The notes under the pieces were generated by a model, which did no database searches, was not told the DNA's origin, and was given only the letters and a program-made list of their open reading frames with translations. Position numbers and translations under genes: made by a program. Shown here in pieces: positions 44,371 through 64,000 of a stretch of DNA of 64,000 bases (position 1 is its first letter; every line of letters begins with the position of its first letter). Origin of the DNA: Flavobacteriaceae bacterium (lineage in GTDB: Bacteria > Bacteroidota > Bacteroidia > Flavobacteriales > Flavobacteriaceae). Location: NCBI GenBank assembly GCA_947451475.1, contig CANFZC010000003.1:11169-75168 (forward strand). The letters are read 5' to 3'.

Positions 44371-44371
44371 T

Positions 44372-45106
44372 TTATTTTGTTTCAGGATGGTTAAAATAAT
44401 ACAAACGTTGCATGTCATCACAAGTAATGAGTAAGTTCCCGTCTTTGTCAAAAGCCAATCCTTCCGGATTTATAACGGGCAACGACCATTTTTGAATTAC
44501 GTCATAAGTGTCTGGATTTACCTTGATAAGCATCATGTCTTCATCACTCAACAAATACAAGTCATTTTTGTAAAAGCGAGCAGAGGAAATGTCTCTAGCA
44601 ATACCGCTAATATCGGTTTGCTTCACCACATTAAAACTTAAATCCAATTCGATAACTAAAATCGGACTGCTCTCCGTAACTAAAACATAATTGTTTTTAA
44701 TAGGATTAAAAGTAAAGGACTCATAGCCTTTATTCTTGGGTCCGTCATAACGAACCGTGGTGGTTTTTGTAACCTTAAAAGTCTTCTTGTCGTATTGATA
44801 GATTGTTCGGCCCGACTCATCCACAGCATAAACATTGTTAGAATCAACATAAACCGCTTCAAAATCAGTGTCTTTTTCCTCCTTTTTGCGAATAACTTTT
44901 CCCTCTAAATCTGTTTCAAATAGGATGCCTTGATCGCTAACTATATAGCAACTATTGCTTGCGGCATCATAACAGATGTCAGAGGGTTCTGGAACAGCAA
45001 TAGATACATGCTTGGTTGGTTTTAGCTTTATCGCTTTTTGTGCCTGTACAGACAAACTCACTAAACACAAACCAGTTACTAAAACGGTTGTTGCTTTTTG
45101 TATCAT
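44372..45106 (-). CDS. SdiA-regulated / YjiK-like beta-propeller protein
   Basis: Repeated blades EPSDICY, DFEAVYV, GYESFTF, DISSARF, NPEGLAF; signal peptide ending VQA. Confidence 0.8.
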   Translation of the reverse strand: MIQKATTVLVTGLCLVSLSVQAQKAIKLKPTKHVSIAVPEPSDICYDAASNSCYIVSDQGILFETDLEGKVIRKKEEKDTDFEAVYVDSNNVYAVDESGRTIYQYDKKTFKVTKTTTVRYDGPKNKGYESFTFNPIKNNYVLVTESSPILVIELDLSFNVVKQTDISGIARDISSARFYKNDLYLLSDEDMMLIKVNPDTYDVIQKWSLPVINPEGLAFDKDGNLLITCDDMQRLYYFNHPETK

Positions 45107-46632: not shown

Positions 46633-46874
46633 CTATGTAAAGTAAAGGATACTTGTAAGTTGTTGCAAAATAAAATATTTTGAGTGTAAGTGATTGTAAA
46701 TGAGTACGGATAGTTGTTTTTGGAAACGGGTGCAATTGAAGTTAATGGTGCTTAAAGTAGGTGGTTTTAAGTATGTTTACAATAACATAATATTATATTG
46801 ATTCCGTTCATCGAACATTAGTTTAGTTTTGCAGAGTATTTCAATTGAAAATATTAAAAATCAAAATATTGTAA

Positions 46875-46882
46875 TAAATTTG
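46875..46882 (+). promoter_or_regulatory. -7 promoter box
   Basis: TAAATTTG; implies start at ATG 46907 rather than TTG 46829. Confidence 0.6.
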
Positions 46883-46906
46883 CACAATATAAATATAAAG
46901 AACCCT

Positions 46907-49900
46907 ATGAAAAATAAAGTCGTACCATCGTTTAGTAAGCTGGTTTTTATTTTTTCTCTTTTTTTAGTTAGTACTTTTGGTAACGCTCAAACCATATTCA
47001 CTTCTTGGACTTTTGATCCAGTGCAAGGGACTTTCACAAATCCAACACCCAATTTTGGTTCAGGTACAGCTGCAGTAGTCAACTCAGGAACTCCTTTAAC
47101 CGCAACAGGTTTTTCGTCAACTACAGGCTGTGGTTCGGCGAACTCAGGCCTAGGATGGCAACATCAACCCTTTAATCCGGGTTTAACAAATGAAGTTAAT
47201 GGAGTGCAATTCAATTCAGGCACAGTAGGCTACACCAACATCATATTTTCATGGGACCAACGATTCTCGGGGACTGCTCCCAATACCGTCCGTCTTCAAT
47301 ATACCACCAATGGTTCAACTTGGACCAATTTCACCATGACTGGGACTAACACAACGATTTGTGCAGGTTCCATAAATGGCAATGGATGTTATGAGACCAA
47401 TGCTGGGAATTCTTATAGAAGAGTCATAGTGAACTTTTCTTCCATTGCAGCGGCCAATAACAATCCAAGCTTTGGTATTCGATTATTAGCTTCTTATTAT
47501 CAAGCCACAGGGCAGTATAGACAAAGTTCTACGCCAGCATCCATCGCCTCAACTACCGGAGCTTGGCGTTTTGATAACGTAAACTTTCTAGGAACGCCCA
47601 ATACTACCGGAGCAATATTGTCCGGTTCCACAACGATTTGTCCAGCGACGTCAACCAACATTACCGCGACAATTATAGGTGGTACAGCTCCTTACACTGT
47701 GGTGTATACAGATGGTACGACCAACTATACCGTAAATAACTATACTTCAGGGGCTACTATTTCAGTGTTGCCTACAACGACAATAACCACCTATTCGTTG
47801 GTGTCAGTTGCAGATAGCTCAAGTGCGGGTATTAGCCCAACGTCAGGTTCTGCCATTGTGACCCAAGATGCTGGTATTTCGCCAACTTTCATTGTTTCGG
47901 CACCTGCAACCTCTTGTCCAGGGACTAGTATAACCTACACCACCCAAGCTGGAATGGATCCCTATACTTGGACGTTCTATAATGGAGCAGCTCCAGCCGT
48001 TTTAGGAACGGATTACACCATCACCACAAACCCATTGACACCAGAAACCGTTGTCGTTCAATGGCTACTCGCTTCGGGTACAGCAACGTTCACTGCAGGA
48101 GTGACCTATAGCTCTTGTTCGGGAAGTACGGCCACTTCAGCAACAGTAGTTTCCTTGCCGACAGTCACCTTTACCACCCAGCCAGGAGCAACCGGCTGTG
48201 CAAATACCGATACTACCTATACCACCCAAGCCGGTCAATCCAATTATGTATGGACTTTCTCGGGAACGCTAGGTACTGATTATACCATTACATCAGGAGG
48301 GAATTCCTCAAGTAATACAGCTGTAGTAAAATGGTTAACCACCACAGGAACAAAAACCGTATCGGTTAATTATACCAACGCAACGGGATGTACTGCTGCA
48401 TCAGCAACGACTTCAACCGCATCAACCGTTTTTGCTGTACCTGCTCCAACATTTACGGCAACGCCTGCAGCCAACGTTTGCGCAGGTTCTAATGTAATTT
48501 ATACGACCCAACCTAGTAGATTTAATTATGTATGGACGTTTCCGGGCACCGCCGGAGTGGATTATAATATAGTCTCTGGTGGAAATGCAACTAGTAACAC
48601 CGTTACTTTAAATTGGATCACAAGTGGTAGTAAAACAGTAACCGTTAATTACAGTAACCAAACAACACCAAATTGCGGAGCAGTAAGCCCTGCAGCATTT
48701 ACAAACAATGTGAATGTCGTTCCAGTAATTACTTCGCAACCTAGTACAGCTGCACAAACAACTTGTTTAGGTACGCCTTTTGCGCCTATTTCAGTTACAG
48801 CTTCAGGTGTAAATCTTACCTATCAGTGGTGGGGAAATACAGCGCAAACGCTACTCCTTGGATTGCCAACGGGGGGAGCTCCTACAGGAGTTGCAACGAC
48901 TACATTTACAGCGCCTTCTGCAACGGCAGGAGTTAAATACTATTATGTAATTGTATCTAGTTCGGGCTGTTCAAGTGCAAAAAGTGCCGCATACACGGGA
49001 GCCTATACTGTTAATCCAACTTCTGTTGGAGGAACCATTGCTGGTAGTACTACCGTTTGTTCAGGTACCAATAGTACTACGTTAACCTTAAGCGGACATA
49101 CAGGAACCATCACCAAATGGCAAAGTGCCAGTGATGCCGCATTTACAACACCAGTGGACATTGCCAATACAGTAACTACACTTACGGTAACCAATCTTAC
49201 CGCAACGACCTATTATAGAGCGGTACTCACAAGCGGGGTTTGTCCCGCTGCAAATAGTGCTTCAGCAACCATTACGGTAAGCCCAGTTTCTGTGGGTGGA
49301 ACGATAGCAGGTGGCGGCACTATATGTTCGAATACAACAACTACACTGACACTAAGTGGCTATACAGGAACGATTACCAAATGGCAAAGCGCCAGTGATG
49401 CTGCCTTTACAACGCCAGTAGATATTGTAAATACTACGCCAACATTGGCGGTGACCAACTTAACCACAACAACCTATTACAGAGCCGTAGTGCAAAGTAG
49501 CCCTTGTTCGTTAGCTTATTCGACTTCAGCGCAATTGCTCTATAAAGCAACCACTTGGAATGGAACAATATGGAGTAACGGCGTTCCCGATAGTACTACC
49601 AAAGCTATTTTTGGGGCTATCTATAACTCGGCAGGCAGTGGTGCAGGTGATTTACAAGCCTGTTCGCTAGAAGTTTTAACCAATGCTATAGTAACCGTTC
49701 GCTCAGGGGATACGTTTACCATCCAAAACGAAATAAAAATTCCGTCTTCCATGCTGCCAACGGCCTTGATTTTTGAAGATTCAGCCAATCTAATACAAGT
49801 GAATAACGTTGTCAATACAGATTACATCTATTACAGAAGAAATACTACGCCAATTAAACAGTATGACTATACGTATTGGTCATCGCCAGTGGTTAGCGAG

Positions 49901-51172
49901 GTCTTATCGACCTTTTCTCCTAATACGACGCAAGTGTTTAAATGGGATACCAGCATTTACAATTGGTCGTTTGTAAGTACAGCGTCTACGATGAATGTGG
50001 GTACAGGATACATAGTGAGAGCGCCCGATGCAGCACCTTTCAATCCAACAACAGCTAATATCTTCAATGGTGAGTTTTTCGGAATCCCAAATAATGGTAC
50101 CCTTACAACTCCTATCGTGGTAACAGGGGCCAATAACTTGAACTTAATTGGAAATCCGTATCCTTCCGCCTTGGATGCTGATAGTTTTATAACCTATAAC
50201 CAACCAGCAAATGGCGGTGTTTTAGCAGGGACCATGTATTTTTGGACGCATAATACACCTATTACGGCCAATAATTATACCAGCAATGATTATGCAAGCT
50301 ACAACTTAACCGGTGGAGTAGGGACTATGGCTCCTAGTAATCCTTGTGCAGGTTGTAATAGTGCCATGCCCAATGGTAAAGTTGCCGCCGGACAAGCCTT
50401 CTTCATTCCAGCGCAAAGTAGCGGAGTAGCCACCTACACCAATACCATGCGTTCTGCCGTGAACAATCAGTTTTTTAAATCAAACACTGCCGTAACTTCT
50501 ATTGAGAAAAACAGATTTTGGTTGGATATTTCAAATACGGACGGTTTGTATAAACAAGTATTAATAGGATATGTTGAAGGTGCTACCAATGAAATTGATC
50601 CTGCCTTTGATGGTAAATCAATAGATGTAGGAAACCCAATCATGATCTATTCTATAGAAGGAGATTCAAAATTAGCCATACAAGGTAGAGGTTTGCCATT
50701 CAATCAAAATGACATAATTGCAATAGGGTATAAGTCTACCGTTGCCAGTGCATTCGAATTCAAACTATCTAACTTTGACGGACTTTTTACCAATCAAGAC
50801 ATTATCATTGAAGATACACTTCAAAATGTTTTCTTTAATTTAAGAGAGGGTGACTATAGTTTTACAACAGAAATAGGAACTTTTGATACCCGATTTAAAT
50901 TACATTTTATAGATACATCAACATTACATACAGCTACTATAAATGCTGCTTCTTTTGTAGTCTATACTGTAAACAATCAAACAACGATCAATGCAGGGAC
51001 AATCAATATGAAACAAGTGGCTTTATTTGATATTCAAGGCAGGTTGCTGCAAAATCATGAGGTTAAAGATGTTCCAGAATATAAGTTTGTAGCCCCACCA
51101 CAAAATCAAGTAATCCTACTTAAGATTACGACTAGTGATGACAAAATAGTCTTTAAAAAGATAGTAATTTAA
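46907..51172 (+). CDS. Large T9SS-secreted adhesin-like protein (beta-sandwich head, PKD/Ig repeats, ChiA-type/type C CTD)
   Basis: Signal peptide ending GNA; three PKD-like repeats (YTTQ...Y.WTF); C-terminal module homologous to that of 33679..40530. Confidence 0.88.
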   Translation: MKNKVVPSFSKLVFIFSLFLVSTFGNAQTIFTSWTFDPVQGTFTNPTPNFGSGTAAVVNSGTPLTATGFSSTTGCGSANSGLGWQHQPFNPGLTNEVNGVQFNSGTVGYTNIIFSWDQRFSGTAPNTVRLQYTTNGSTWTNFTMTGTNTTICAGSINGNGCYETNAGNSYRRVIVNFSSIAAANNNPSFGIRLLASYYQATGQYRQSSTPASIASTTGAWRFDNVNFLGTPNTTGAILSGSTTICPATSTNITATIIGGTAPYTVVYTDGTTNYTVNNYTSGATISVLPTTTITTYSLVSVADSSSAGISPTSGSAIVTQDAGISPTFIVSAPATSCPGTSITYTTQAGMDPYTWTFYNGAAPAVLGTDYTITTNPLTPETVVVQWLLASGTATFTAGVTYSSCSGSTATSATVVSLPTVTFTTQPGATGCANTDTTYTTQAGQSNYVWTFSGTLGTDYTITSGGNSSSNTAVVKWLTTTGTKTVSVNYTNATGCTAASATTSTASTVFAVPAPTFTATPAANVCAGSNVIYTTQPSRFNYVWTFPGTAGVDYNIVSGGNATSNTVTLNWITSGSKTVTVNYSNQTTPNCGAVSPAAFTNNVNVVPVITSQPSTAAQTTCLGTPFAPISVTASGVNLTYQWWGNTAQTLLLGLPTGGAPTGVATTTFTAPSATAGVKYYYVIVSSSGCSSAKSAAYTGAYTVNPTSVGGTIAGSTTVCSGTNSTTLTLSGHTGTITKWQSASDAAFTTPVDIANTVTTLTVTNLTATTYYRAVLTSGVCPAANSASATITVSPVSVGGTIAGGGTICSNTTTTLTLSGYTGTITKWQSASDAAFTTPVDIVNTTPTLAVTNLTTTTYYRAVVQSSPCSLAYSTSAQLLYKATTWNGTIWSNGVPDSTTKAIFGAIYNSAGSGAGDLQACSLEVLTNAIVTVRSGDTFTIQNEIKIPSSMLPTALIFEDSANLIQVNNVVNTDYIYYRRNTTPIKQYDYTYWSSPVVSEVLSTFSPNTTQVFKWDTSIYNWSFVSTASTMNVGTGYIVRAPDAAPFNPTTANIFNGEFFGIPNNGTLTTPIVVTGANNLNLIGNPYPSALDADSFITYNQPANGGVLAGTMYFWTHNTPITANNYTSNDYASYNLTGGVGTMAPSNPCAGCNSAMPNGKVAAGQAFFIPAQSSGVATYTNTMRSAVNNQFFKSNTAVTSIEKNRFWLDISNTDGLYKQVLIGYVEGATNEIDPAFDGKSIDVGNPIMIYSIEGDSKLAIQGRGLPFNQNDIIAIGYKSTVASAFEFKLSNFDGLFTNQDIIIEDTLQNVFFNLREGDYSFTTEIGTFDTRFKLHFIDTSTLHTATINAASFVVYTVNNQTTINAGTINMKQVALFDIQGRLLQNHEVKDVPEYKFVAPPQNQVILLKITTSDDKIVFKKIVI

Positions 51173-51402: not shown

Positions 51403-54400
51403 ATGAAATCAATTTTACAAGCATTGTTTAGTAAATGGTACCGCAGCTCAAGCAATTCGAGTGCGACTATTTCTAAAAACAGTTTGAATTCAGATTCAAG
51501 TTTGTTTGAAAAAAGAGGTAATACGGCCTTCGTAACGGCCTTTATTTCGACTTTACTGTTTTCGGTTTTTGGATTCATCCAAAAATCATGCAGTTCAATT
51601 TTTGGCCTTAAAGCATTAAGCCAAAGACAGTATTTTAAAGTAAATGCATTGGGTGTTTTGACTTTAATTCTATTCTTTGGAGTTAATCAATCAGTAACTG
51701 CTCAGATTTCATATGCAACTTCTGGTTCAAGTTATACTCAAAATTTTGACAACTTGCTTACGCCAACAGTTCCAGCTAATAACACTGCAATTGCAAGTGT
51801 TTTGCCTACAGGTTGGAGTTTCGTAGAAGCAGGAACTAATGCAAATGCAACTTTTAGAGTTGATAACGGTTCTTCTGGGACTGGAGATACTTTTTTTGAT
51901 GGTGCTACAAGCTCTAATGAAAGATCTTTAGGGGCGTACGCCTCTGGTAGTTTGACTTCTCAATTTGGTGCTTCTTTTACAAATAACACAGGAGCTACAT
52001 TAACGCAATTTACCCTTTCATATACTGGAGAACAGTGGAAAGATGGTGGTAGTGCTACTGCGATATTAAACAAACTTACTTTTGCTTATGCAGTTAATCC
52101 AACTTCTTTGACTGTAGGAACCTATACAAATGTTACTAGTCTTGATTTTACAGCGTTAGTTAATAATACTACTGCAGATGCTACTACCGATGGGAATGCA
52201 TCTAATAGAAGAACTGCTATAACATTTACCGTGACAGGTATTTCTTGGCCTGCGGGTCAAACATTGTACATAAGATGGACAGACGTAAATGATGCTGGAA
52301 ATGATGATAACTTAGCAGTTGATGATTTGACTTTTTCAGCGTTAGGTGCTGCTACACCAACTATAACAGGTGCTGCAACAGCAACAGCATTTACAGCTAC
52401 TTATGGAACGGCTTCTTCAGCACAAACATTCTCAGTTTCTGGAACTAATTTAACCGCTGATATCACGGCAACCGCACCACTTAATTTTGAAGTGTCATCC
52501 GACGGCGTTACCTATGGTGCAACAGCAACATTCACGCAATCAGGTGGGACTGCTTCAGGCTCTTTAAGTGTTCGTATTAAAGCTGCTGCTGCCGTGACGG
52601 GTAGTTATAATAGTGTAAATATACCGTTAACTTCTACAGGAGCTACTGCAGTAAACATCACAACGGCTGCTTCAGGAAATAGCGTTTCCCCTGTAGGGTT
52701 AACCATTTCTGGGGTTTCTGGGGTAAACAAAACATATAACGGAACTAATGCTGCCACGTTAACAGGTACAGCTTCTTATGTTGGTTTGGTAAACAGCGAA
52801 TCTTTTGCCGTTACAGGTACGCCTGCCGCCACTTTTGCTTCGGTAAATGTTGGAACAGGAATTAGCATAACGATTTCAGGTTATACAGCACCTTCAACAA
52901 ATTATACCGTAACGCAACCAAGTACTTCAGCTGATATTACAGCAAAAGGCTTAACGATTACCGGTATTTCGGCCAACAATAAAGTATACGATGGAACAAC
53001 TGCCGCTACTTTGGCAGGTACTGCTGCCCTTTCAGGGGTTGTGGGTGCAGATGTTGTGACGCTAGGAGGTACTCCAGTAGCTACTTTCGCTTCTTCAGCC
53101 GCTGGGACAGGTATTGCTGTAAACGTTACAGGATATACGATTTCAGGAACAGCTGCAGGAAATTATTCCTTAACACAGCCTACACTATCGGCCGACATCA
53201 CTTTAACTCCTACACCAGTAATTACCAGTGCTCTTACAGCTTCAGGGACCTATGGTGTAGCTAGTACCGCTTATACAATTACAGCTTCCAATGCACCAGA
53301 CACGTATAATGCTACAGGTTTACCTGCCGGATTATCAATCACTGATGGTGTAATTAGTGGGACGCCAACAGTAACAGGTACATTTAATGTAACCATTTCG
53401 GCTACTAATGCCGGAGGTACAGGAACGGCTACTTTAGTTTACACGATTGCTGCAAAAGCATTGACCGTATCAGGAGCTAGTGTTTCTTCAAAAACCTACG
53501 ACGGTACTACAACTGCTACTATAATCGGAGCAAGCTTAAATGGTATAGTTTTAGGAGATACCATTACGGTTAGTGGTAACGGAACGTTTGCTTCTGCCAA
53601 TGTTGGAACTGCTATTTCAGTGACTCCTGCTTTGTCTATTTCAGGAACTAATGCAACTAATTATGCGCTAACGCAACCTTCCTTGACGGGAGATATTACA
53701 GCTAAAGCCTTAACGGTAACGGCTAATAATGTTTCAAAAGCTCCAGCCCAAGTGTTAACAGGTGGCGCAGGTTCATTAGCTTTTTCAACCAATGGATTGG
53801 TTAGTTCTGAAACTATTGGAAGTGTAACCATTACCTATGGAGCTGCTGCGGGAGCAACGGGTACGGGTAATACTATCGGAGTTTATGCTAATGAAGTTAC
53901 ACCTTCAGCAGCAGCAGGAGGAACATTCTTGGCTTCAAATTATACCATAACCTATACATCAGGTTCAATTAGTGTAGCCGGATTTGGCAACGGTAACTTA
54001 GTAGTAAATAGATTAGGAGATGGGACTACTTCATTAGGAAGTATTGCAGCCCCAATTAGTCTTTTAGAAGTAACTACAACGGGTACGGTAGTAAACACCT
54101 TAAGTACTGGTGTATTTACAGGAACAAATTTATTGACCGATACTGCTACAGGTACCTCAAATGGTAACTTAAGCTCAAATGGTCAATACTTAGCAGTTCC
54201 TGGATATAATGCCGCAGTGGGAACAACAGGTGTGGCTACTTCCAACACTAAGGCAACTAATGTATTTGGTTTAGGCTATACCGTGGCAACTAGAGTTAAT
54301 TTCCCTGCAACAGTATACCCAAGTAATAATTATAGAAGTGTAGTACCTACAAGTACTTCAACATTCTATACAGCGGGTACCCCAGGAGGTATCTGGTATT

Positions 54401-57400
54401 ATGATGGAACCAACTTTGTAAATGTATGTGCTACAGTCTCAAATACAAGAATAGTTAAGATTTATAATGGAAATTTATATTTCACTACAGCTACTGGAGC
54501 GGGTATTTATCAAGTAGGAACAGGTTTACCTACCACAGCGGGTCAAACGGCTTCTTTAGTGTTCAACACAGTTACAGCAAGTCCATACGGTTTTGCAATC
54601 AGTCCTGATGGCAATACTGCCTACGTGGCCGATGATTCTACAGTAAATGCTAATATAGGTGGCGGTATTCAAAAATGGTCTAAAGCAACAGGTACTTGGG
54701 TACGTCAATATACCTTAGGTACTATTGCTAGAAGTATTACAGTTGACTTCTCAAGCACTAACCCAATAATCTATGCTACTACAGCTGAAACAGCTAATAA
54801 TAAAATAATTAAAGTTGTTGATAACGGCACAGCATTATCGTCTACCGATGTTACTTCTGCAGGAGCTAATTATATTTTCCGCGGAGTGGATTTTGCTCCA
54901 GCAGCACCAAGTCCAAAAATTACAGCTACTGGAACTGTAGCAGCTTGTAATACAACCTACGGAACGGCATCTTCAATTACGTCATTCAACGTGGCTGGAA
55001 GCAATATGTTGGGAGCAATTACAATTACTCCTCCAGCGGGTTTCGAAGTGTCAACTACCAGTGATTTCTCCGCTAATATTGGAACAAATGCATCTCCAAT
55101 TACTGTAGGATCTTCTGAAACTATTGCTTCAACGCCAATTTACGTTAGAATTCCAGGTACAACAGCTGTGGGAACTTATACTGGAACTATTGTATTAAGC
55201 AGTTCATTTGCCAATAATGTGGCGGTAGCAACAGTTTCAAGTGTCGTTAGCACAAAAGCATTGACTATTACCGGAGTATCTGGAGTATCCAGAGCATATG
55301 ACGGTACTACTGAAGCTTCTTTGACTGGAACAGCTACTTATGTTGGTTTAGTAAATGGTGATTCATTTAGTGTAGCGGGATCCCCTGCGGCAACCTTTGC
55401 AGATAAAAATATCGGTACAGCAAAAGCAATTACCGTTATAGGATACACTGCTCCTTCATCAAATTATACGGTAGCACAACCAACCGGTATAGCGGCTGAT
55501 ATCACAGCAAAAGACCTAACGGTTTCAAATGTTACCGCGAATAATAAATCGTATGATGGTACAGTAAATGCTACCTTATCAGCATCATTAGAAGGAGTTA
55601 TTGCTCCCGACAATGTGACGCTAGTAGCTACAGGAGAATTTGAATTTAATTTTCAAACCCTATTCTTCGGAACACCGGGGAACATCGTGAATCTTGCGTT
55701 CTCCATAACGGGTAATGCTGGAGATGTGGCCAACTACAATCTAGTTCAACCTACTGTTAGCGGTTTAACAGCCGATATTTACCCAAAAGAATTAACGGTT
55801 ACTGGAGCTACAGCTATTGATAAAGTATATGACGGTACTACTGATGCAGTAGTGACGGGTACTTTAAATGGCGTAGTGGATGGCGAAACAGTTTTCTTAG
55901 TGAGCTCGGGTACTTTTGCTTCGGCTGAAATAGGTACTAATATCGCAGTGACACCTACATGGGCGATAGATGGTGATACATTCAACTATACACTTATCGA
56001 ACCAACAGTATCTTTAACGGCTAATATTACTAGTCCAAGCGCACCTTCAATTACAAGTGCGACTACAGCTACAGCTACTTACGGAGATACAACAACGTCA
56101 TATGTAATAACTGCTACAGGTGATGCAACCTCTTATAATGCGACTGGCTTGCCTCCTGGGTTAAGTGTAAATACATCTACTGGTGAAATTACAGGTTCTC
56201 CTTCAGCAACTGGAGTATATGCAGTGGCTCTAAGTGCTACCAATTCAGGTGGTACAGGTTTTGCTACTTTAACGTATACGATTAATACCATCAATGTAAC
56301 AATTCCAAACGCGTTAGCGAATAATAAACAATACGATGGAACTACTACAGCTGCCATCACAGGTACTTTAACAGGTGCGATTGCTGGTGACGATGTGTCG
56401 TTCAATGGGGCAGGTACTTTTGATAGCGCTGCTATTGGAAGCAACATATTTGTTACGTCCAATATAATCTTAACAGGTACGAAAGCGGCCAACTATACCT
56501 TAACGCAACCAAGTGGATTAACGGCTAATATTACTCAAAAAGTATTGACTGTTTCGGCATCAGTTTCTAACAAAGTATACGACGGTACTACAACAGCTAC
56601 AGTTAATGTGGATGCTACGAACGGTATTGTAGGTTCTGAAATTGTAAATGTTTCCGCTACAGGAACTTTTGATACAGCCAATGTAGGGAACGGTAAAAAT
56701 GTAACGGTGGCCTATAGCTTAAATGGAGCTAATGTTGGAAACTACAGTATTGTTTCTCCAGTGACTTTAACAGGTAACATTACACCAAAACCATTAACAT
56801 ATACAGCAACAGCTGATAATAAAGTGTTTGATGGCAATACCAATGCTACCGTAACCGTAAGTGCTATTACTGGAGTGGTAGCTCCAGATGTAGTAACGAT
56901 TACAGGTACAGGTACTTTTGCTTCTTCTGCCATTGCAAATGGTATCGTAGTAAGTAATATTGCCTTGACATTAGGTGGTGCTCAAGCAGCTAATTATGCT
57001 ATAGCACAGCCAACAGGTACCTTAACCGCCAATATTACAGTGGCTCCTACAGTATTAACTGCTGGAGATATTGCGGTAATTGGTTATAATACAAGCGGAA
57101 CACCTGATAGTTTTTCTATAGTTGTGTTAAAAGATTTGACATCAGGAACACAGTTCTTTGTTAATGATAATGAATTAGCTTCAACTACTGCCACTTCATT
57201 TACGGATTTAGGCGAAATGGAAGCATCTTTCACAGTAAAATCAGGACAAACTATTCCTGCAGGAACTGTGATTGTATTACCATGGGGAGCTGCTGCTGTT
57301 TCAACGGCAACATATGATTGGAGTTCAACTTCAGGGGCTGGTTTTGGAGCAAGTAATGATGAAATATTCATCTATACAGCACCGTCAATTACGGCTACGA

Positions 57401-60400
57401 CTCCAACATTATTCTTATACTTTGCTAAACTAGGTACGAGTCCAAGTGCTATACCAGCAAGTTTAGAAACTTCAACGACGGGCACAGGTACAACGGCTAT
57501 TAGCCCTACAGCAGCAGCGTTACGTTATAACACTACAACAAATATTTATAATTCTTGTAAGCAAATACTATTAAACGAAATAGGTAAAACAGCTACTACC
57601 AATTGGACTACAACGGGTTCTGCTGCTGTAGTAGCTACAGATTGGACATTTACAGTATTACCTACTTGTCCTACTCCGTCAATTACTACTAATGTTGCTA
57701 CGTTAGATGCCCTTACTACAGAGTACGGTTCTGCTTCATCAACTACTAGTTTTACAGTTACAGGAACGTATTTAACATCAGATGTGGCCCTTACAGCTCC
57801 TGCAGGATTTGAAATCTCAACAAATGCAACGTCAGGTTTTGCAAATTCATTGGCCTTGACTCAAATATCAGGAAGTGTAAATAGTACAATCTTCGTTAGA
57901 TTAACGTCATTAACAACAGTACTTTTATCTCCTTACAGTGGAAATATTACCATAACAAATACAGGAGCAACTACAGTAAATGTGGCAGCATCCGGAACAG
58001 TTACGCCAAAAGCAGTGACCATTACTGGCCTATTAGTGAATAACAAAGTACAAAGTATTGGAAACTTTACCGCTACACTTACGGGAACTCCAGTATTAAA
58101 CGGGGTGTTAAGTGCTGATTCATCCACTGTTGCACTTGACAGTTCAGCGGTTACTGCGGTATTCGCACAAGATACTGCGGGAACTAGTATTCCAGTAACA
58201 GTTTCTGGATATGCCTTAACAGGTGCTGCTGCAGGAAACTATGCGTTAGTACAACCTAGCTTAACAGGAACGATTACTTCGGTAGCATCTCCAGTAATTA
58301 CAAGTGCTTTAACGTTTAGTGCTGTTTACCGTACACAAGCTGCCGCTTATACCATTACAGCAACTTCTGATGAAGCCTATCCTGTTACGGGTTATAATGC
58401 AACGGGTTTACCAGCTGGTTTAACTGTTAATACAACTACCGGAGTTATTTCAGGTACACCAACGGCTGCACCCGGTAACTATAATGTAACGATCTCGGCA
58501 ACCAACATTGGAGGTGATACAAATGCATTATTAGTGTATACAATAACTAAGAAAGAAATTACGGTTACCGCTACTGCTTCAAGCAAAGTGTACAATGCTA
58601 CTACGGCAGCTACTATTACGGTTGGAACTATAACGGGTGTTGTAGGTACTGATATAGTAACAGTAACAGGTGGTGGTACTTTCGATACTAAAAATGTAGG
58701 TACTGCCAAATCAGTTACCGCGGCCTTAGTATTAGGAGGCGCACAAGCTGGTAATTATAGCTTAACGCAACCAACAGGTTTAACAGCAGATGTTACAGCG
58801 TTTACAGTAACTTTATCGGGTGCTGCGGCACAAAGTAAAGTATTCGACGGAAATACAAATGCAGTAATTACAGCTACATTGGTAGGAATAATTGCAGGAG
58901 ATGTGGTTACTTTCAACGGGACAGGTACTTTCGCTACTTCAGCGCTTGGTCAAGCAATCGCTGTGACTTCAACTGCTACATTAATTGGTACTGATGCTGG
59001 TAATTATACTTTTGTTCAGCCTACCACATTAACGGCTAATATTACAGATACTATTATTTACTTAAATACATTTACTGGGATTTCGGCATGTCCAACAAAT
59101 GGAAATGTGCCTACTATGGTGACCAACTCAACAGGTACACCTTTATCAAGAAATACCATAACATGTAACGCGACCGCTAACGTGCTTAATTCAACAACAT
59201 TAAATGCAACGGCTTCGGTTAGTAATAGTTCTTATATAGAGTTTTCAGCCTCAGCAACTGCAGGTAATAAATTAAGTGTAACGTCAGTATCTTTCTTTAG
59301 ACAAGCTAGTAACTCGGCTCCTAATAAGTTAGAAGTTCGTTACAGTACCGATGGATTTGTGACGTCTACTGCTTGGGGAGCTGCTCCAGTTACTCCAATC
59401 GCAGGTAATGTAATTACTTGGGATTTTTCAGATTTCACTACACCTACTGGTGGTACAGTAACCTTCCGTTTATATCCATACGGTACAACACGTGCAGATC
59501 TTACTGTTCCGGCGGCTGCCGCTTCTGGTACATTCAGATTAGATGATGTTACTATTTACGGTAAAGTGCTTACAGGACCAACAGCTGCGGCATTATCTCT
59601 CACAGGTAGTGATACCTTCTGTAGTGGTACTGCTACTACAGTTAAAGTTGATGTTACCGGAGGTACAGCTCCTTATACCGTGGCTTACTCTAACGGTTCT
59701 ACTACTAATTATGTAAGTGGTACTGATGCTACAGTAATTCCAACAGCATCTCCTTTTACTTTGCTTTCAGTAACAGATGCAAATGGTATTACTTTAACTA
59801 GTAATCTATCAGGTTCGATAAACTTTAACATCACACCAACTACTTCAAATACTACTACCGCTTCAGCATGTGATTCGTATACTTGGTCAGTAAATGGTCA
59901 AACGTATACTACAAGTGGAACATATACAGTAGTGAATGGATGTAATACTCAAATTTTAGCGTTAACCATTACACCAAGTACTTCAAATACTACCACAGCT
60001 TCAGCATGTGATACGTATACTTGGTCAGTAAATAACCAAGCGTATACAGCTTCAGGAATATATTCAGTAGTTAACGGATGTCATACAGAAGTATTGAACT
60101 TAACGATCACACCAAGTACAAGTACAACAACGACTACTTCATCATGTGGTGATTACTTATGGTCAGTAAACGGTCAAACGTATACCATCAGTGGAACATA
60201 TACTTATGTATCTGGATGTCACACCGAGATATTGAACTTAACTGTTGCAACCTGTTCATCGACATTGAACTTAAAAGTAGCTATTCAAGGATACTATGAC
60301 ACAGACGCTCACGCTATGCGTGCTGTTAAAGCAAACCAAGGAGTAGGTACTAGTACAACAGCTGTTGACGATATCACAGTTGAATTAAGAGATGTAACAG

Positions 60401-60849
60401 ATTATCATGTTGTGGCAAGTGTAACAGCAAGCTTACAAACGGACGGTACTGCAGTATGTACTTATGCTACCGCGCCAACTGGATCATTCTATGTATCCGT
60501 TGCTCACAGAAACAGTATTCAAGTAATGAGTGCTACCCCTGTGACTGTAGGTGCTACGCCAGCATCATTTGACTTTACTGCCGCTGCTGCAAGAGCGTTT
60601 GGCGATAACCAAGTGTTAGTTGACGGAGTGTACACTATGTACTCAGGAGACTTTAATCAAGATGGATTTGTTGATATTTTCGATTATCCTGCTTATGATG
60701 CAGCGAATCAAAGTGGAGGTGCTTATGACGGAACTTACGTTGTAACGGATCTTAACGGAGATGGATTTGTAGATATCTTTGATTACCCTATTTATGATGT
60801 AAATAACCAAGGAAACGTTCAGGCCGTATTGCCTTATAGTCTTCCATAA
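51403..60849 (+). CDS. Giant (3148 aa) secreted YDG/Ig-repeat protein with C-terminal dockerin-like domain
   Basis: About 11 K.YDG-type repeats, 3 He_PIG Ig units (ATGLP.GL...G.ISGTP), several head domains, 3 Cys repeats, and terminal GDFNQDGFVDIFD / TDLNGDGFVDIFD; no YPNP/T9SS CTD. Confidence 0.9.
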   Translation: MKSILQALFSKWYRSSSNSSATISKNSLNSDSSLFEKRGNTAFVTAFISTLLFSVFGFIQKSCSSIFGLKALSQRQYFKVNALGVLTLILFFGVNQSVTAQISYATSGSSYTQNFDNLLTPTVPANNTAIASVLPTGWSFVEAGTNANATFRVDNGSSGTGDTFFDGATSSNERSLGAYASGSLTSQFGASFTNNTGATLTQFTLSYTGEQWKDGGSATAILNKLTFAYAVNPTSLTVGTYTNVTSLDFTALVNNTTADATTDGNASNRRTAITFTVTGISWPAGQTLYIRWTDVNDAGNDDNLAVDDLTFSALGAATPTITGAATATAFTATYGTASSAQTFSVSGTNLTADITATAPLNFEVSSDGVTYGATATFTQSGGTASGSLSVRIKAAAAVTGSYNSVNIPLTSTGATAVNITTAASGNSVSPVGLTISGVSGVNKTYNGTNAATLTGTASYVGLVNSESFAVTGTPAATFASVNVGTGISITISGYTAPSTNYTVTQPSTSADITAKGLTITGISANNKVYDGTTAATLAGTAALSGVVGADVVTLGGTPVATFASSAAGTGIAVNVTGYTISGTAAGNYSLTQPTLSADITLTPTPVITSALTASGTYGVASTAYTITASNAPDTYNATGLPAGLSITDGVISGTPTVTGTFNVTISATNAGGTGTATLVYTIAAKALTVSGASVSSKTYDGTTTATIIGASLNGIVLGDTITVSGNGTFASANVGTAISVTPALSISGTNATNYALTQPSLTGDITAKALTVTANNVSKAPAQVLTGGAGSLAFSTNGLVSSETIGSVTITYGAAAGATGTGNTIGVYANEVTPSAAAGGTFLASNYTITYTSGSISVAGFGNGNLVVNRLGDGTTSLGSIAAPISLLEVTTTGTVVNTLSTGVFTGTNLLTDTATGTSNGNLSSNGQYLAVPGYNAAVGTTGVATSNTKATNVFGLGYTVATRVNFPATVYPSNNYRSVVPTSTSTFYTAGTPGGIWYYDGTNFVNVCATVSNTRIVKIYNGNLYFTTATGAGIYQVGTGLPTTAGQTASLVFNTVTASPYGFAISPDGNTAYVADDSTVNANIGGGIQKWSKATGTWVRQYTLGTIARSITVDFSSTNPIIYATTAETANNKIIKVVDNGTALSSTDVTSAGANYIFRGVDFAPAAPSPKITATGTVAACNTTYGTASSITSFNVAGSNMLGAITITPPAGFEVSTTSDFSANIGTNASPITVGSSETIASTPIYVRIPGTTAVGTYTGTIVLSSSFANNVAVATVSSVVSTKALTITGVSGVSRAYDGTTEASLTGTATYVGLVNGDSFSVAGSPAATFADKNIGTAKAITVIGYTAPSSNYTVAQPTGIAADITAKDLTVSNVTANNKSYDGTVNATLSASLEGVIAPDNVTLVATGEFEFNFQTLFFGTPGNIVNLAFSITGNAGDVANYNLVQPTVSGLTADIYPKELTVTGATAIDKVYDGTTDAVVTGTLNGVVDGETVFLVSSGTFASAEIGTNIAVTPTWAIDGDTFNYTLIEPTVSLTANITSPSAPSITSATTATATYGDTTTSYVITATGDATSYNATGLPPGLSVNTSTGEITGSPSATGVYAVALSATNSGGTGFATLTYTINTINVTIPNALANNKQYDGTTTAAITGTLTGAIAGDDVSFNGAGTFDSAAIGSNIFVTSNIILTGTKAANYTLTQPSGLTANITQKVLTVSASVSNKVYDGTTTATVNVDATNGIVGSEIVNVSATGTFDTANVGNGKNVTVAYSLNGANVGNYSIVSPVTLTGNITPKPLTYTATADNKVFDGNTNATVTVSAITGVVAPDVVTITGTGTFASSAIANGIVVSNIALTLGGAQAANYAIAQPTGTLTANITVAPTVLTAGDIAVIGYNTSGTPDSFSIVVLKDLTSGTQFFVNDNELASTTATSFTDLGEMEASFTVKSGQTIPAGTVIVLPWGAAAVSTATYDWSSTSGAGFGASNDEIFIYTAPSITATTPTLFLYFAKLGTSPSAIPASLETSTTGTGTTAISPTAAALRYNTTTNIYNSCKQILLNEIGKTATTNWTTTGSAAVVATDWTFTVLPTCPTPSITTNVATLDALTTEYGSASSTTSFTVTGTYLTSDVALTAPAGFEISTNATSGFANSLALTQISGSVNSTIFVRLTSLTTVLLSPYSGNITITNTGATTVNVAASGTVTPKAVTITGLLVNNKVQSIGNFTATLTGTPVLNGVLSADSSTVALDSSAVTAVFAQDTAGTSIPVTVSGYALTGAAAGNYALVQPSLTGTITSVASPVITSALTFSAVYRTQAAAYTITATSDEAYPVTGYNATGLPAGLTVNTTTGVISGTPTAAPGNYNVTISATNIGGDTNALLVYTITKKEITVTATASSKVYNATTAATITVGTITGVVGTDIVTVTGGGTFDTKNVGTAKSVTAALVLGGAQAGNYSLTQPTGLTADVTAFTVTLSGAAAQSKVFDGNTNAVITATLVGIIAGDVVTFNGTGTFATSALGQAIAVTSTATLIGTDAGNYTFVQPTTLTANITDTIIYLNTFTGISACPTNGNVPTMVTNSTGTPLSRNTITCNATANVLNSTTLNATASVSNSSYIEFSASATAGNKLSVTSVSFFRQASNSAPNKLEVRYSTDGFVTSTAWGAAPVTPIAGNVITWDFSDFTTPTGGTVTFRLYPYGTTRADLTVPAAAASGTFRLDDVTIYGKVLTGPTAAALSLTGSDTFCSGTATTVKVDVTGGTAPYTVAYSNGSTTNYVSGTDATVIPTASPFTLLSVTDANGITLTSNLSGSINFNITPTTSNTTTASACDSYTWSVNGQTYTTSGTYTVVNGCNTQILALTITPSTSNTTTASACDTYTWSVNNQAYTASGIYSVVNGCHTEVLNLTITPSTSTTTTTSSCGDYLWSVNGQTYTISGTYTYVSGCHTEILNLTVATCSSTLNLKVAIQGYYDTDAHAMRAVKANQGVGTSTTAVDDITVELRDVTDYHVVASVTASLQTDGTAVCTYATAPTGSFYVSVAHRNSIQVMSATPVTVGATPASFDFTAAAARAFGDNQVLVDGVYTMYSGDFNQDGFVDIFDYPAYDAANQSGGAYDGTYVVTDLNGDGFVDIFDYPIYDVNNQGNVQAVLPYSLP
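59833..60246 (+). repeat. Three tandem 138-bp (46-aa) Cys-pair repeats
   Basis: Units start at 59833, 59971, 60109: TP..S.TTT.S.C..Y.WSVN.Q.YT.SG.Y..V.GC.T..L.LT. Confidence 0.9.
60649..60783 (+). other. Two 12-residue Ca-binding loops (dockerin-like)
   Basis: DFNQDGFVDIFD (60649-60684) and DLNGDGFVDIFD (60748-60783), 33 codons apart, each followed by YP.YD..NQ. Confidence 0.8.
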
Positions 60850-60865
60850 TTAAGTTATAGAGAGT

Positions 60866-60895
60866 GTAAGCTGCCAGCTTTGGCTGGTAGCTTGC
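60866..60895 (+). other. Intergenic stem-loop with no U tract
   Basis: GTAAGCTGCCAGC-TTTG-GCTGGTAGCTTGC, 13-bp stem with two G-U pairs. Confidence 0.75.
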
Positions 60896-60919
60896 CTCAT
60901 CATAAATGATATAAATAAT

Positions 60920-63900
60920 ATGAAATCCACAATCACAAATAAATTAATTACTATGAGATCACAAAAATTCTCTTTAAAGATGCGATTACTGTTTACGGTT
61001 CTGTCTTTATTTACGATTAGTCTTTCGGGATTTGCACAGCAGTCATTTAGTCTATCAGTGACTAACTGTAGTGCCGCGGCTCAAGATTTATCGTTTGATG
61101 TTACGGTGACGAACTTGTTAACGACAGACTTGCGTTTTAACGCTGCTACGCTTCGTTTCCAATTTGGAGCCAACATCTTGCCTTCAACAGGAACAAACAC
61201 CGTTAGCTGGGGTTATGCTGGGGAGTCTGACTTTCCATCAAGTTTTCCAAATGTTTTTCCTGCTGCAGGAAATCCAACATTTAGTTATAACGCTGCTACC
61301 AGAACGTGTTCTGTTAATACAGCAACGGCTGCCTATAACAACTTGACTTGTACTGCTCCACTTATAGCTGGAGGAGAGACTAAGAAAATAGGCCGTTTTG
61401 TAATTCACAATTCACAACCTTTTGTTACCGACCAACAAGTAGGATTAACATGGGTTACTACTAGTGGATTAACGCTTTATTCAGCGTGTACTTCTACTAC
61501 AGTGGGTTACCAACTTACTACCAACCGTACTTTAAATCCTCCGTGTAACTTAAGTACGTTGCCTTCATGTACAAATACCTCAAGCTCTGCTTCAGCAACT
61601 GCTTGTGATAGCTATACATGGTCAGCAAATGGTACTACTTACACAACAAGTGGTGTTTATACTTATGTAACAACACTAGCAGGTGGATGTACAGATACTA
61701 AAACGTTAAACTTGACTATTACACCAAGTTCAGTTCATTCAACTACCATTTCAGCTTGTGATAGCTATACATGGTCAAACAATGGTCAAACGTATAGTGC
61801 TTCAGGTACTTATAGTGGAACTACTACGAACTGTGTAACAGAGCAATTAGTATTGACTATTACTCCAAGTTCAAACCACACTACAAATGCTAGTGCTTGT
61901 GGAAGTTATACATGGTCTAATAATGGACAAACGTATACTACCTCTGGTGTTTATACCGGTACAACTACTAACTGTGTTACAGAGAAGTTGAACTTAACTA
62001 TTACACCAGCTACTTCTAATACGACTACAGCTTCAGCATGTGGTACTTACCACTGGGGTGTTAATGATGCAGATTATACAGCATCAGGAACGTATACTTC
62101 CGTTCGTAACTGTCATACAGAAATATTAGAATTGACTATTACACCAAGTACTACTAACACTACAGAAGCTAATGCTTGTGGAAGTTATACATGGTCAAAC
62201 AATGGTCAAACGTATACTACTTCAGGTATCTATACAGGAACAACTACCAACTGTGTAACAGAATTGTTAGACTTGACAGTAACTCCTAATACTACCAACA
62301 CTACTACCGCTACAGCTTGTGGCAGTTATACATGGTCAGTAAACAACAGTACGTATACTGCAAGTGGAACGTATTCAGTAGTTTCAGGATGTCATACAGA
62401 AGTGTTAGATTTAACGATCAACCCTGCAACAATTACTACACAACCAGCAGCAAACTTTATCTGTTCTACAGTAGGTTCTACTTCGTCATTCTCAGTTGAG
62501 ACTAACGTTTTATCACCATCATACACTTGGCAGTATAGAGTAGTTACTGCAGCTAATCCTAACCCAGTTTGGAACACTATTACAAGTGCTCAGGCAGCGG
62601 TTTATTCAGGATACGCTACAGCTACGTTACACGTAACAAAAGCTACTACTACTTTACCTGCTACAGGTACTCAGTATAGAGTTTTAGTGTCAGGAGCTTG
62701 TGGTGATGTTGCATCAAATTCAGCATCATTAATGATTATCTCTACAGTTAAAGCAGGAACAATTACTTCGCCAACAGCTACGGTATGTTTAGGAAGTGAT
62801 ATTACTTTAACATTAGGAGGTTATGCTGCTACATCATTCCAATGGCAGTCCTCACCAATTTCGACTACTGCAGCACCAGGAGTGTTTACAGATATCCCAG
62901 GCGCAACAGGTACTTCTTATACTATTGTAGGAGCTACTTCGACTATGGATAAATCTTACCGCGTAGTTGTTACCAATTCATGTAACAATACTACCGCTAC
63001 TTCATTAGTTAAAACACTTAAAGTTGATCCAACATCGGTTGCCGGAAACATTGTTTCAGGAGGTGGTGTTGTTTGTTTAGGAAGTGGAAGTACTTTAAAA
63101 GTAGCCGGTCATGTTGGAACAGTACAATGGGAGTATTCAACCGATGGAGGAGTTACTTATGTTAATGCTCCAGCAGCATCAGCAGGTCAAACTGTACCAT
63201 TTGGAACTACTTCAGTAAATAGTAAATCAGCTACTTATATCATTACTGGAATTTCAACTGAATTGTATTTCAGAGCTAAACTTACTAGTGGAACCTGTTC
63301 ATCAGCTTATACCGCTCCTGCACATTATACTTTAGGCACACAAGCTGAAGTAGGTACCGTAACTGCTGCTAGTACATTATTATGTCCTGCTTCAGGAACT
63401 ACTTTGACTTTGTCAAGTGCAGTAGGAATTGTAACATGGCAGAAAGCTACTAATATTACTGCTCCAGTTTGGACATCAACTACTAACCATACTATGTCAT
63501 TAGCGACAGGCAACTTAACAGCTTCTGCTGCTTATAGAGCCTTGGTTACTATTGGTACTTGTTCAACGGTATCAAGTAATATAGTAGTAGTAGCAGTTGT
63601 TGCTAAACCAGTAGTTAAAACATTAACTACCAATACTACTACACCAGCAGGTGCAGCAGCCGCTACAGCAATTTGTACGAACAGTACCGTTGCTAAGATC
63701 TTAACTGCAGGTGTTGGAACAACCGGTGGTACTATTCAATGGCAATGGTCAACGACTTCAGCTACAGCTGGATTTGTTGATATCGCAGGAGAAACAGGTA
63801 CTAGTTATACTATTACTAACCCATCAGTTGGAGCAAACTACTACAGAATTGTAGTAACTAACTCCTGTGGTGTAAGTGTAACAGGAACAGCAAAAGCGGT

Positions 63901-64000
63901 TTACTACAAAGATTGTGGACCTGCTAAATTTGCGCCAGTTGCTGTTGCTTCACCATTTAGTGTAGTGGCTTATCCAAACCCATATAGTGAAAACTTCAAC
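60920..64000 (+). CDS. T9SS type A protein with cohesin-like N-terminal domain (runs off the window; missing from the ORF track)
   Basis: Manual translation is open for 1027 codons from ATG 60920 (alternative 60953): signal peptide ending SGFA, beta-sandwich head, 6 Cys repeats, Ig-like repeats, ending FSVVAYPNPYSENFN. Confidence 0.88.
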   Translation, partial: MKSTITNKLITMRSQKFSLKMRLLFTVLSLFTISLSGFAQQSFSLSVTNCSAAAQDLSFDVTVTNLLTTDLRFNAATLRFQFGANILPSTGTNTVSWGYAGESDFPSSFPNVFPAAGNPTFSYNAATRTCSVNTATAAYNNLTCTAPLIAGGETKKIGRFVIHNSQPFVTDQQVGLTWVTTSGLTLYSACTSTTVGYQLTTNRTLNPPCNLSTLPSCTNTSSSASATACDSYTWSANGTTYTTSGVYTYVTTLAGGCTDTKTLNLTITPSSVHSTTISACDSYTWSNNGQTYSASGTYSGTTTNCVTEQLVLTITPSSNHTTNASACGSYTWSNNGQTYTTSGVYTGTTTNCVTEKLNLTITPATSNTTTASACGTYHWGVNDADYTASGTYTSVRNCHTEILELTITPSTTNTTEANACGSYTWSNNGQTYTTSGIYTGTTTNCVTELLDLTVTPNTTNTTTATACGSYTWSVNNSTYTASGTYSVVSGCHTEVLDLTINPATITTQPAANFICSTVGSTSSFSVETNVLSPSYTWQYRVVTAANPNPVWNTITSAQAAVYSGYATATLHVTKATTTLPATGTQYRVLVSGACGDVASNSASLMIISTVKAGTITSPTATVCLGSDITLTLGGYAATSFQWQSSPISTTAAPGVFTDIPGATGTSYTIVGATSTMDKSYRVVVTNSCNNTTATSLVKTLKVDPTSVAGNIVSGGGVVCLGSGSTLKVAGHVGTVQWEYSTDGGVTYVNAPAASAGQTVPFGTTSVNSKSATYIITGISTELYFRAKLTSGTCSSAYTAPAHYTLGTQAEVGTVTAASTLLCPASGTTLTLSSAVGIVTWQKATNITAPVWTSTTNHTMSLATGNLTASAAYRALVTIGTCSTVSSNIVVVAVVAKPVVKTLTTNTTTPAGAAAATAICTNSTVAKILTAGVGTTGGTIQWQWSTTSATAGFVDIAGETGTSYTITNPSVGANYYRIVVTNSCGVSVTGTAKAVYYKDCGPAKFAPVAVASPFSVVAYPNPYSENFN
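61571..62419 (+). repeat. Six tandem 46-47-aa Cys-pair repeats (first unit longer)
   Basis: AC.(S/T)Y.W..N...Y..SG.Y.....C.T..L.LT repeated six times. Confidence 0.9.

Follow-up and report, generated by a model that had tools for sequence, protein, structure and literature searches.

A giant Flavobacteriaceae protein without a type IX secretion signal may dock, through a type II-like X-module–dockerin unit, onto a secreted partner encoded by the next gene

The window analysed here is a 64,000-nt stretch of the genome of a Flavobacteriaceae bacterium (GCA_947451475.1, contig CANFZC010000003.1, positions 11,169 to 75,168 of the forward strand), and our subject is the giant protein encoded by its open reading frame (ORF) 51403–60849, together with the gene that follows it. 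We propose, with a probability of roughly 60% for the reading as a whole, that the giant docks onto a partner targeted to the T9SS (type IX secretion system) and encoded 70 nt downstream, and that it may be exported with the C-terminal domain (CTD) of that partner acting in trans. The giant is composed of a Sec-type N-terminus, 12 stretches of YDG domain (Pfam E 1e-131) and other repeats, and a C-terminal unit at 60256–60849, the last 197 aa, in which a beta-sandwich is followed by two near-identical Ca-loop/helix repeats. This unit resembles the X-module plus dockerin (XDoc) of clostridial type II systems, and the product of the next gene carries, directly after its signal peptide, a candidate cohesin-like N-terminal domain (ND). 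Judging from sequences and models, it is likely that XDoc and ND bind each other; that export proceeds by piggyback, and not by separate export followed by docking, is more tentative, at somewhat less than even odds. Type II cohesin–XDoc pairs anchor scaffoldins to the cell. Folded proteins are steered through the T9SS by type A CTDs, for which a surface anchor is substituted. As substrates, this system handles folded and very large proteins (review, PMC9251779).

The translation of the tail is exactly as the initial annotation had quoted it. The two repeats are GDFNQDGFVDIFDYPAYDAANQ and TDLNGDGFVDIFDYPIYDVNNQ, with loops starting at D132 and D165 of the 197-aa segment and a spacing of 33 residues, and both DFNQDGFVDIFDYPAYDAANQ and DLNGDGFVDIFDYPIYDVNNQ fit the canonical dockerin Ca loop DxNxDGxVDxxD. 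The tail has the architecture of Dockerin_1 (PF00404), namely, two tandem segments of ~22 residues, each with a 12-residue Ca loop of the DxNxDGxVNxxD type and a helix. In the AlphaFold2 model of the last 197 aa (predicted local distance difference test score, pLDDT, 95; predicted template modelling score, pTM, 0.91), helices occupy residues 141–152 and 177–185, right after the Ca loops. Foldseek searches of the PDB with this model returned only type II XDoc units as the 10 best matches, with E-values of 2.5e-6 to 8e-5 over ~190 columns; top matches were 4wi0_B, 4u3s_B, 3kcp_A, 5k39_B, 5g5d_B, 2b59_B and 5m0y_B, from Clostridium thermocellum and Acetivibrio cellulolyticus scaffoldins. The target-normalised template modelling (TM) scores were 0.58–0.67 for isolated XDoc chains, at identities of 10–18%. 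According to their labels in the search output, the two top matches, 4u3s and 4wi0, are interface mutants of a single type II cohesin–XDoc complex; they were reportedly made to demonstrate dual binding in a type II pair. These best structural matches point to a tail that folds as one rigid X-module-plus-dockerin unit of type II XDoc-like form. The symmetric dockerin of the initial annotation is thereby retained, but it is predicted to be part of a type II XDoc unit and not a bare type I dockerin placed after an unrelated beta domain.

Searches with the last 197 aa retrieved at least 88 proteins at 38–88% identity, and since all of them span the whole segment, the beta-rich part and the two repeats travel together. 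The nearest relative of the tail (86–88% identical) is found in a Flavobacteriaceae metagenome-assembled genome (MAG), while the giant protein has no exact counterpart in public assemblies. A genome scan, with one genome per species, gave at least 326 XDoc relatives, with several copies per genome, and the best 80 of these all belong to Bacteroidota (Flavobacterium, other Flavobacteriaceae, Crocinitomicaceae, Ferruginibacter and Chitinophagaceae). The family profile aligned with solved dockerins across both repeats (E 1.4e-6 to 5e-4). Between the X-module and clostridial X-modules no homology was detected by sequence; in alignments with solved structures, the family profile was matched in its dockerin part only (positions 177–246). 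The scan for Dockerin_1 suggested by the initial annotation was positive at the level of the family, with 63 of the 86 members matching at E <= 0.01 (best 5.7e-9), but the window sequence itself reached only 16.0–17.1 bits (E 0.0065–0.014), under the Pfam cut-off of 22.9. Given the family of at least 88 proteins, the match of its profile to solved dockerins and the Dockerin_1 matches of its members, the dockerin identity of the tail does not appear to be due to chance. The tail also gave weak FG-GAP and EF-hand-type matches in Pfam; an FG-GAP or integrin-type repeat was considered and rejected, as the profile-to-PDB alignment spans both repeats of real dockerins and the predicted fold is that of XDoc.

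Throughout the family the repeats are symmetric. Over the 13 residues that follow each Ca loop, the first and second repeats of one protein share 61% identity, compared with 28% between proteins, and in 136 of 154 proteins the protein's own second repeat outdoes more than 95% of foreign second repeats in matching its first repeat. This is the pattern expected of dual-binding dockerins, and together with the family profile and the XDoc fold it bears out the earlier description of the tail as dockerin-like and internally symmetric.

The giant lacks a T9SS CTD of its own, as had been claimed from the letters alone: none of the NCBIfam models for type A (TIGR04183), type B (TIGR04131) and type C (NF033708) gave a match at E <= 1, whether the full-length protein or only its last 299 aa was scanned, and in Pfam the same 299 aa gave a weak FG-GAP match (E 1.8e-4), a Dockerin_1 match under the cut-off (E 0.014) and nothing else. 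Across the XDoc family, the T9SS CTD models produced no match except weak ones (E 0.009) in 2 of 86 members. A divergent T9SS CTD was rejected as an identity for the tail, there being no NCBIfam match and no T9SS CTD among the 50 best Foldseek matches; HMM scan and structure prediction thus gave no CTD variant in the last 200 aa and did predict a dockerin fold there. A scan of the N-terminus of the giant found no lipobox, in agreement with the initial annotation, and lipoprotein anchoring of XDoc carriers in general was rejected, with loose lipobox-like strings in only 4 of 78 of them and none in the window protein.

XDoc stops 0–5 residues short of the protein end in all 99 carriers (those of the collected loci and the window), which range from ~100 to more than 3500 aa, and 70 of the 78 complete N-termini are Sec-signal-like according to a heuristic. 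The cargo comprises M12B, M4 and M14 peptidases, a pectate lyase, sortilin/BNR and leucine-rich repeat (LRR) proteins and giant adhesin-like repeat proteins, so that the carriers are the same kinds of protein as normally bear a T9SS CTD. At the small end, minimal carriers of ~259 aa (L048, L050, L054 and L055, from Ferruginibacter and relatives; P0037, P0050 and P0062) have no parts other than XDoc and, ahead of it, a signal peptide and a 45-aa motif that is conserved (QVIASAGG...LTQGFQQP). Assembly CAZSUF01, a MAG labelled 'uncultured Bifidobacterium sp.', carries at least 12 XDoc genes (loci L015, L020, L029, L031, L043, L055, L058, L064, L070 and L078) and T9SS-type tails, in which it resembles Chitinophagaceae, and its Bifidobacterium label looks wrong.

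A hydropathy scan placed the likely cleavage of the giant between VTA and Q and showed a further hydrophobic segment upstream at residues 42–59, because of which the true start codon is uncertain. About 80 residues precede the likely cleavage site, with hydrophobic segments at residues 42–59 and 80–95 (window 51403–51702); the giants of L023, L033, L075 and L080 likewise have 25–40 additional residues ahead of the hydrophobic core. Either the start codons of the giant and its relatives are mis-called, or these proteins have extended signal regions.

Clustering of all neighbours of the 99 carrier genes brought out one strongly enriched family, whose genes follow immediately downstream of the carrier genes on the same strand and whose products have the layout of a signal peptide, a ~170-aa domain, a variable middle and a T9SS type A CTD. 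The window partner follows this order, with a signal peptide, the cohesin-like ND, Cys-containing and Ig-like repeats, and the start of a type A CTD. It breaks off at AYPNPYSENFN, the first 11 residues of the CTD, a motif that is found in L016, L033 and L075 (...AYPNPYSENFNLSL...RVIKR), and all 19 complete relatives of the partner match TIGR04183 (best E 4e-15). By sequence, ND had no Pfam or PDB match, and the first homologue search with it gave a single match. The AlphaFold2 model of ND, by contrast, had type II cohesins as its best Foldseek matches (3fnk_B, 4wi0_A, 4u3s_A, 2bm3 and 5k39_A at E 9e-5 to 6e-4, and 5g5d_A; type II cohesins overall at E 9e-5 to 2e-3), and 4wi0_A, 4u3s_A, 5k39_A and 5g5d_A are the partner chains of the very complexes matched by the XDoc model. 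This suggests that ND is a cohesin-like receptor domain; the fold call comes from a single moderate-confidence model of the window's ND subfamily, and with modest scores the fold alone is insufficient for it. The initial annotation had posed the crossing of the outer membrane by the giant as an open problem without looking downstream, where the cohesin-like ND and type A CTD of the next gene now offer a concrete candidate route.

A Cys-containing repeat of ~37 aa (CDSYTWSVNGQTYTxSGTY...C.T..L.LTITP) occurs in three copies just ahead of the giant's XDoc (window 59850–60255) and in six copies right after the cohesin-like domain of the partner (window 61560–62400), as well as in many related partners. 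The repeat thus stands on both flanks of the proposed giant–partner junction.

The domain grammar was counted in 167 cohesin-like proteins, drawn from a library of 1.84 billion proteins and from the earlier searches. In 160 of them ND starts no later than residue 70; 90 end in a T9SS CTD (86 type A, three type C and one type B), 10 end in another XDoc and have up to four ND copies in a scaffoldin-like arrangement, and the remainder are fragments. Many ND proteins of ~300 aa contain a signal peptide, ND and a CTD and nothing else. Scaffoldin-like proteins with 2–3 cohesin-like domains and a C-terminal XDoc are encoded at L008:3959–10570 and L088:557–5890, and the loci L097–L099 present a chain in which an XDoc gene is followed by an ND plus XDoc gene (~780 aa) and then by another cohesin-like gene. 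By analogy, this grammar appears to copy the cellulosomal enzyme–adaptor–anchor scheme, a T9SS CTD standing where cellulosomes have S-layer homology (SLH) repeats.

Gene order and sequence co-variation also connect the two modules. An ND gene lies directly downstream on the same strand, mostly after a gap of 8–60 nt, in 25 of the 94 XDoc genes with enough downstream sequence, and in 15 of the 34 large carriers. When metagenome loci were collected from ND instead, with one ND subfamily other than that of the window, an XDoc gene ended 20–190 nt upstream in 14 of 19 cases. ND-protein look-ups added L100–L102, where the XDoc gene ends 20–26 nt upstream in all three (L100 and L101 share their ND protein); the upstream XDoc gene of L100 encodes a 1422-aa M14 peptidase. 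Cultured strains with the gene pair include Flavobacterium buctense JCM 30750 (L023), F. silvisoli RD-2-33 (L004) and F. cheonhonense JCM 17064 (L005). The identity of the dockerin helices correlates with that of ND (r = 0.77), also when the X-module of the same gene is controlled for in a partial Mantel test (r = 0.70, p = 2e-4), and dockerin helix types map one-to-one onto ND subfamilies: DYSIWETxANN onto the CxGNQ type, DFPxLxNxSDN onto the YTMSM type, DFPxxFxDNDN onto the HFTVSLANV type and FDYPxYDxxNQ onto the NC type of the window. Moreover, XDoc and ND behave as a cassette that is exchanged jointly from one cargo protein to another: L023 and L033 encode orthologous carriers with 73% identical cargo and the cargo of L023 and L025 is only 40% identical, yet XDoc and ND of L023 are 81–84% identical to those of L025.

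The window sequence is present in lake-water metagenomes, and contigs from four lake metatranscriptomes cover XDoc, the spacer and the cohesin-like domain. In three metatranscriptomes single contigs cross the junction (X3 record 18, X7 record 27 and X17 record 11), and a scan of the spacer at 60850–60919 showed no terminator-like site, both of which fit co-transcription. The spacer between carrier and partner genes is more variable between strains than the flanking genes; in the lake samples X3 and X7, a different 68-nt spacer replaces 81 nt (window 60836–60918) between coding sequences that are 95–99% identical.

In the mechanism that we propose, the giant and its partner would both reach the periplasm through Sec, and the Ca-loaded dockerin of the giant would bind the cohesin-like domain of the partner. 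The product would be a head-to-tail non-covalent chain of giant, XDoc, cohesin-like domain, partner and CTD, with a CTD only at the far C-terminal end, and this CTD would supply both T9SS targeting and cell-surface attachment, so that the CTD-less giant would be exposed on the outermost end of a stalk anchored through the T9SS. Docking most likely would take place in the periplasm, with the pair crossing the outer membrane together and the CTD working in trans. Often the partner would be an adaptor of ~300 aa with only a cohesin-like domain and a CTD. Periplasmic docking is favoured because the carriers have no other recognizable outer-membrane route, because many partners are such bare adaptors and because the strict end-to-end placement of the modules gives a linear substrate, none of these reasons being decisive. 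Extended to the whole family, the proposal that the T9SS exports CTD-less proteins through a dedicated cohesin–dockerin pair formed in the periplasm, with carrier–adaptor–anchor chains threaded and displayed together, is a possibility with the odds leaning against it.

Several observations weigh against docking and co-export of the giant. An ND gene is missing next to around 70% of XDoc genes, so that shared or distant receptors must exist. The co-variation of dockerin and ND is partly expected from the joint inheritance of adjacent genes, which the X-module control lessens without removing. The model of the window's ND is of moderate confidence (pLDDT 75, pTM 0.75), its cohesin matches have TM scores of ~0.49, with the jelly-rolls of carbohydrate-binding modules (CBM2 and CBM3) close behind at E ~1e-3, and Pfam Cohesin (PF00963) matches neither the window domain nor its relatives, save for 1 of 29 at E 0.048. 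That the window partner has a type A CTD of its own is read from its 11 visible CTD residues and from complete relatives. The metatranscriptome contigs show presence only and may contain DNA. Finally, our literature search found no precedent for T9SS co-export of a non-covalent complex, and a complex of a 3148-aa and a >1000-aa protein would be a demanding substrate for this system.

The absence of adjacent ND genes from so many loci is equally what one would see if docking were the only role of the pair, the giant being exported by an unrecognized signal of its own, either with XDoc as a new T9SS C-terminal signal or by some other route, and binding its partner outside. Clostridial cohesins and dockerins do meet outside the cell, and XDoc behaves like a sorting domain in being strictly C-terminal, present in many copies per genome and attached to diverse cargo, its first part being an Ig-like beta-sandwich as in T9SS CTDs. 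However, the T9SS CTD models and the 50 best Foldseek matches offer no such relationship, the beta-sandwich is not terminal, being followed by ~65 aa of dockerin, and the sequences suggest no other outer-membrane route. The ~300-aa proteins made of signal peptide, ND and CTD fit a role as CTD adaptors at least equally well, and overall we consider external docking alone unlikely.

It is less probable still, and in our estimation improbable, that there is no cohesin–dockerin pairing, the tail being a Ca-binding structural or glycan module and ND a carbohydrate-binding jelly-roll, brought together as neighbours by a shared adhesion process. The resemblance of the ND model to CBM2/CBM3, the silence of Pfam Cohesin and the weak FG-GAP and EF-hand-type matches of the window tail would all suit this explanation, but it leaves unexplained that each of the two models, independently of the other, leads to one chain of the same cohesin–XDoc crystal complexes, that dockerin helix type and ND subfamily are tied more closely than the X-module accounts for, that both modules swap jointly between cargo and that their grammar copies that of cellulosomes. 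A giant with no dedicated outer-membrane route at all, which would remain periplasmic or leave by vesicles or lysis, would account for the lack of a recognizable outer-membrane targeting signal; its YDG and adhesin-type repeat architecture, the degradative enzymes acting on extracellular polymers among the related carriers and the tight coupling to a T9SS cargo gene make this very improbable.

Docking of the giant onto its T9SS-targeted partner can be compared with several known systems. The clostridial type II pairs, which among characterized systems come closest, comprise the XDoc of C. thermocellum CipA with the cohesins of SdbA, OlpB and ScaC, and that of A. cellulolyticus ScaA with the ScaB cohesin Coh3; the A. 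cellulolyticus pair is said to bind in two orientations. The system described here would share with them a C-terminal X-module and two-repeat Ca dockerin forming one rigid unit and a jelly-roll receptor domain on a cell-anchored protein, both predicted in our case, as well as symmetric dockerin repeats and the enzyme–adaptor–anchor grammar, including proteins with multiple cohesin-like domains and XDoc; the best structural matches on both sides are to these pairs. It differs in that the host is a Gram-negative member of the Bacteroidota, whose anchor bears a T9SS CTD and not SLH repeats and whose ligand must cross the outer membrane. In addition, the receptor domain is invisible to Pfam Cohesin and nearly always stands right behind the signal peptide, the genes for receptor and ligand very often form an adjacent pair, and the cargo consists mostly of peptidases and giant adhesin-like proteins instead of cellulases.

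Compared with canonical T9SS cargo, the kinds of protein and the phylum are the same, the partner appears to be ordinary type A cargo, and the window contains other CTD proteins; the giant and its relatives at other loci, however, lack a CTD in cis and, if our model is right, would obtain it in trans from a non-covalent partner. The Tat hitchhiker mechanism, in which a periplasmic enzyme complex is exported, and peroxisomal piggyback import resemble our proposal in that a signal-less folded protein is carried by a signal-bearing partner through a translocon that takes folded substrates (PMC9251779). They operate with another machine and membrane, whereas here a dedicated modular adaptor pair, proposed from sequence, would be reused on dozens of cargo proteins.

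Cohesins and dockerins have been stated to be absent from Bacteroidota (PMC5831590), and a few dockerins have been reported in rumen Bacteroidota (PMC6487960). In the available parts of a study of the Cloacimonadota 'Ca. Stygibacter', it was deduced from genomes only that enzymes with signal peptides and C-terminal dockerins accompany a cohesin scaffoldin bearing a T9SS-type CTD for surface attachment (PMC8542988), which is the closest published idea to the giant–partner architecture. As far as those parts go, that proposal concerns another phylum and Pfam-recognizable cohesins within one scaffoldin of 3,755 aa, makes no mention of an X-module, adjacent carrier–receptor gene pairs or co-variation analysis, and does not address how the dockerin proteins cross the outer membrane. 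It was also the only related item found in the literature on T9SS in connection with dockerins, cohesins, piggybacking or hitchhiking, co-secretion and CTD-less cargo, and we found no publication on a Bacteroidota XDoc unit, a cryptic cohesin-like domain, the gene-pair organization or trans-acting CTDs.

The chance that these modules reveal a new mode of T9SS substrate recruitment is real but unproven. T9SS substrates are now recognized by a CTD in cis, and predictions of Bacteroidota secretomes consequently miss CTD-less proteins. In Flavobacteriia and Chitinophagia that are abundant in fresh water, hundreds of peptidases, lyases and giant adhesin-like proteins bear the mark of this module pair and would be candidate surface proteins whose targeting depends on a neighbouring gene. 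If XDoc and ND do bind, cohesin–dockerin assembly would extend to Gram-negative Bacteroidota and would make available naturally orthogonal types of pair, of which the present data show at least four. If piggyback export holds, the view of T9SS substrate selection and translocon capacity would change, and a simple handle for the surface display of foreign proteins would be at hand; a CTD acting in trans would represent a new T9SS recruitment mode and a cellulosome-style assembly native to Gram-negative Bacteroidota. The features on which the proposal is built are listed in Table 1.

Table 1. Carrier and partner features in the window, in window coordinates
Feature	Position	Strand	Basis or remarks
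Giant carrier protein	51403–60849	+	3148 aa; ORF list and translation
Signal-peptide-like hydrophobic segment, residues 80–100 (VNALGVLTLILFFGVNQSVTA, then Q)	51640–51702	+	Hydropathy scan, heuristic
X-module-like beta-sandwich (LNLKVAIQGYY...FGDNQ)	60259–60639	+	Residues 2–128 of the 197-aa unit; AlphaFold2 strands
Dockerin-like module	60646–60816	+	Pfam Dockerin_1 below cut-off, family profile, model helices, repeat symmetry
Ca loop 1, DFNQDGFVDIFD	60649–60684	+	Followed by helix IFDYPAYDAANQ
Ca loop 2, DLNGDGFVDIFD	60748–60783	+	Followed by helix IFDYPIYDVNNQ
Short C-terminal tail, Pro last, then stop codon	60817–60849	+	
Spacer between carrier and partner genes	60850–60919	+	70 nt; imperfect hairpin without T-run
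Partner gene, continuing beyond the window end	60920–64000	+	>1026 aa visible; sequence and translation
Cohesin-like N-terminal domain (predicted)	61043–61546	+	Partner residues 42–209; AlphaFold2 and Foldseek
Last visible partner residues, FSVVAYPNPYSENFN	63953–63997	+	Opening motif of T9SS type A CTD, truncated where the window stops

Among the neighbouring genes, the initial annotation had taken the other large secreted proteins to end in a T9SS CTD. This holds for the minus-strand ORF 41358–43166 (602 aa), which has a clear type A tail (Por_Secre_tail, 39.5 bits, above threshold), but for ORFs 33670–40530 and 46829–51172 the matches to the type C (ChiA-like) model, at 35.6 and 21.1 bits, remained under the cut-off of 40. 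Given these CTD matches, and that of ORF 41358–43166 in particular, the source organism uses the T9SS and the giant stands out among its neighbours. The giants 33670–40530 and 46829–51172 have a similar C-terminal region of ~450 aa in common and may carry a divergent type C signal. Two minus-strand ORFs, 43201–44451 (phosphate-selective-porin-like) and 44372–45106 (SdiA-regulated/phytase-like beta-propeller), overlap by 80 nt as called, and the upstream TTG start of the porin-like ORF may be mis-called. Immediately upstream of the genes for this group of giant surface proteins, window positions 9819–33342 contain a long same-strand run of polysaccharide-synthesis-type genes, including a chain-length regulator/tyrosine-kinase-like protein, a glycosyltransferase of family 4 (GT4) and a membrane-bound O-acyltransferase (MBOAT).

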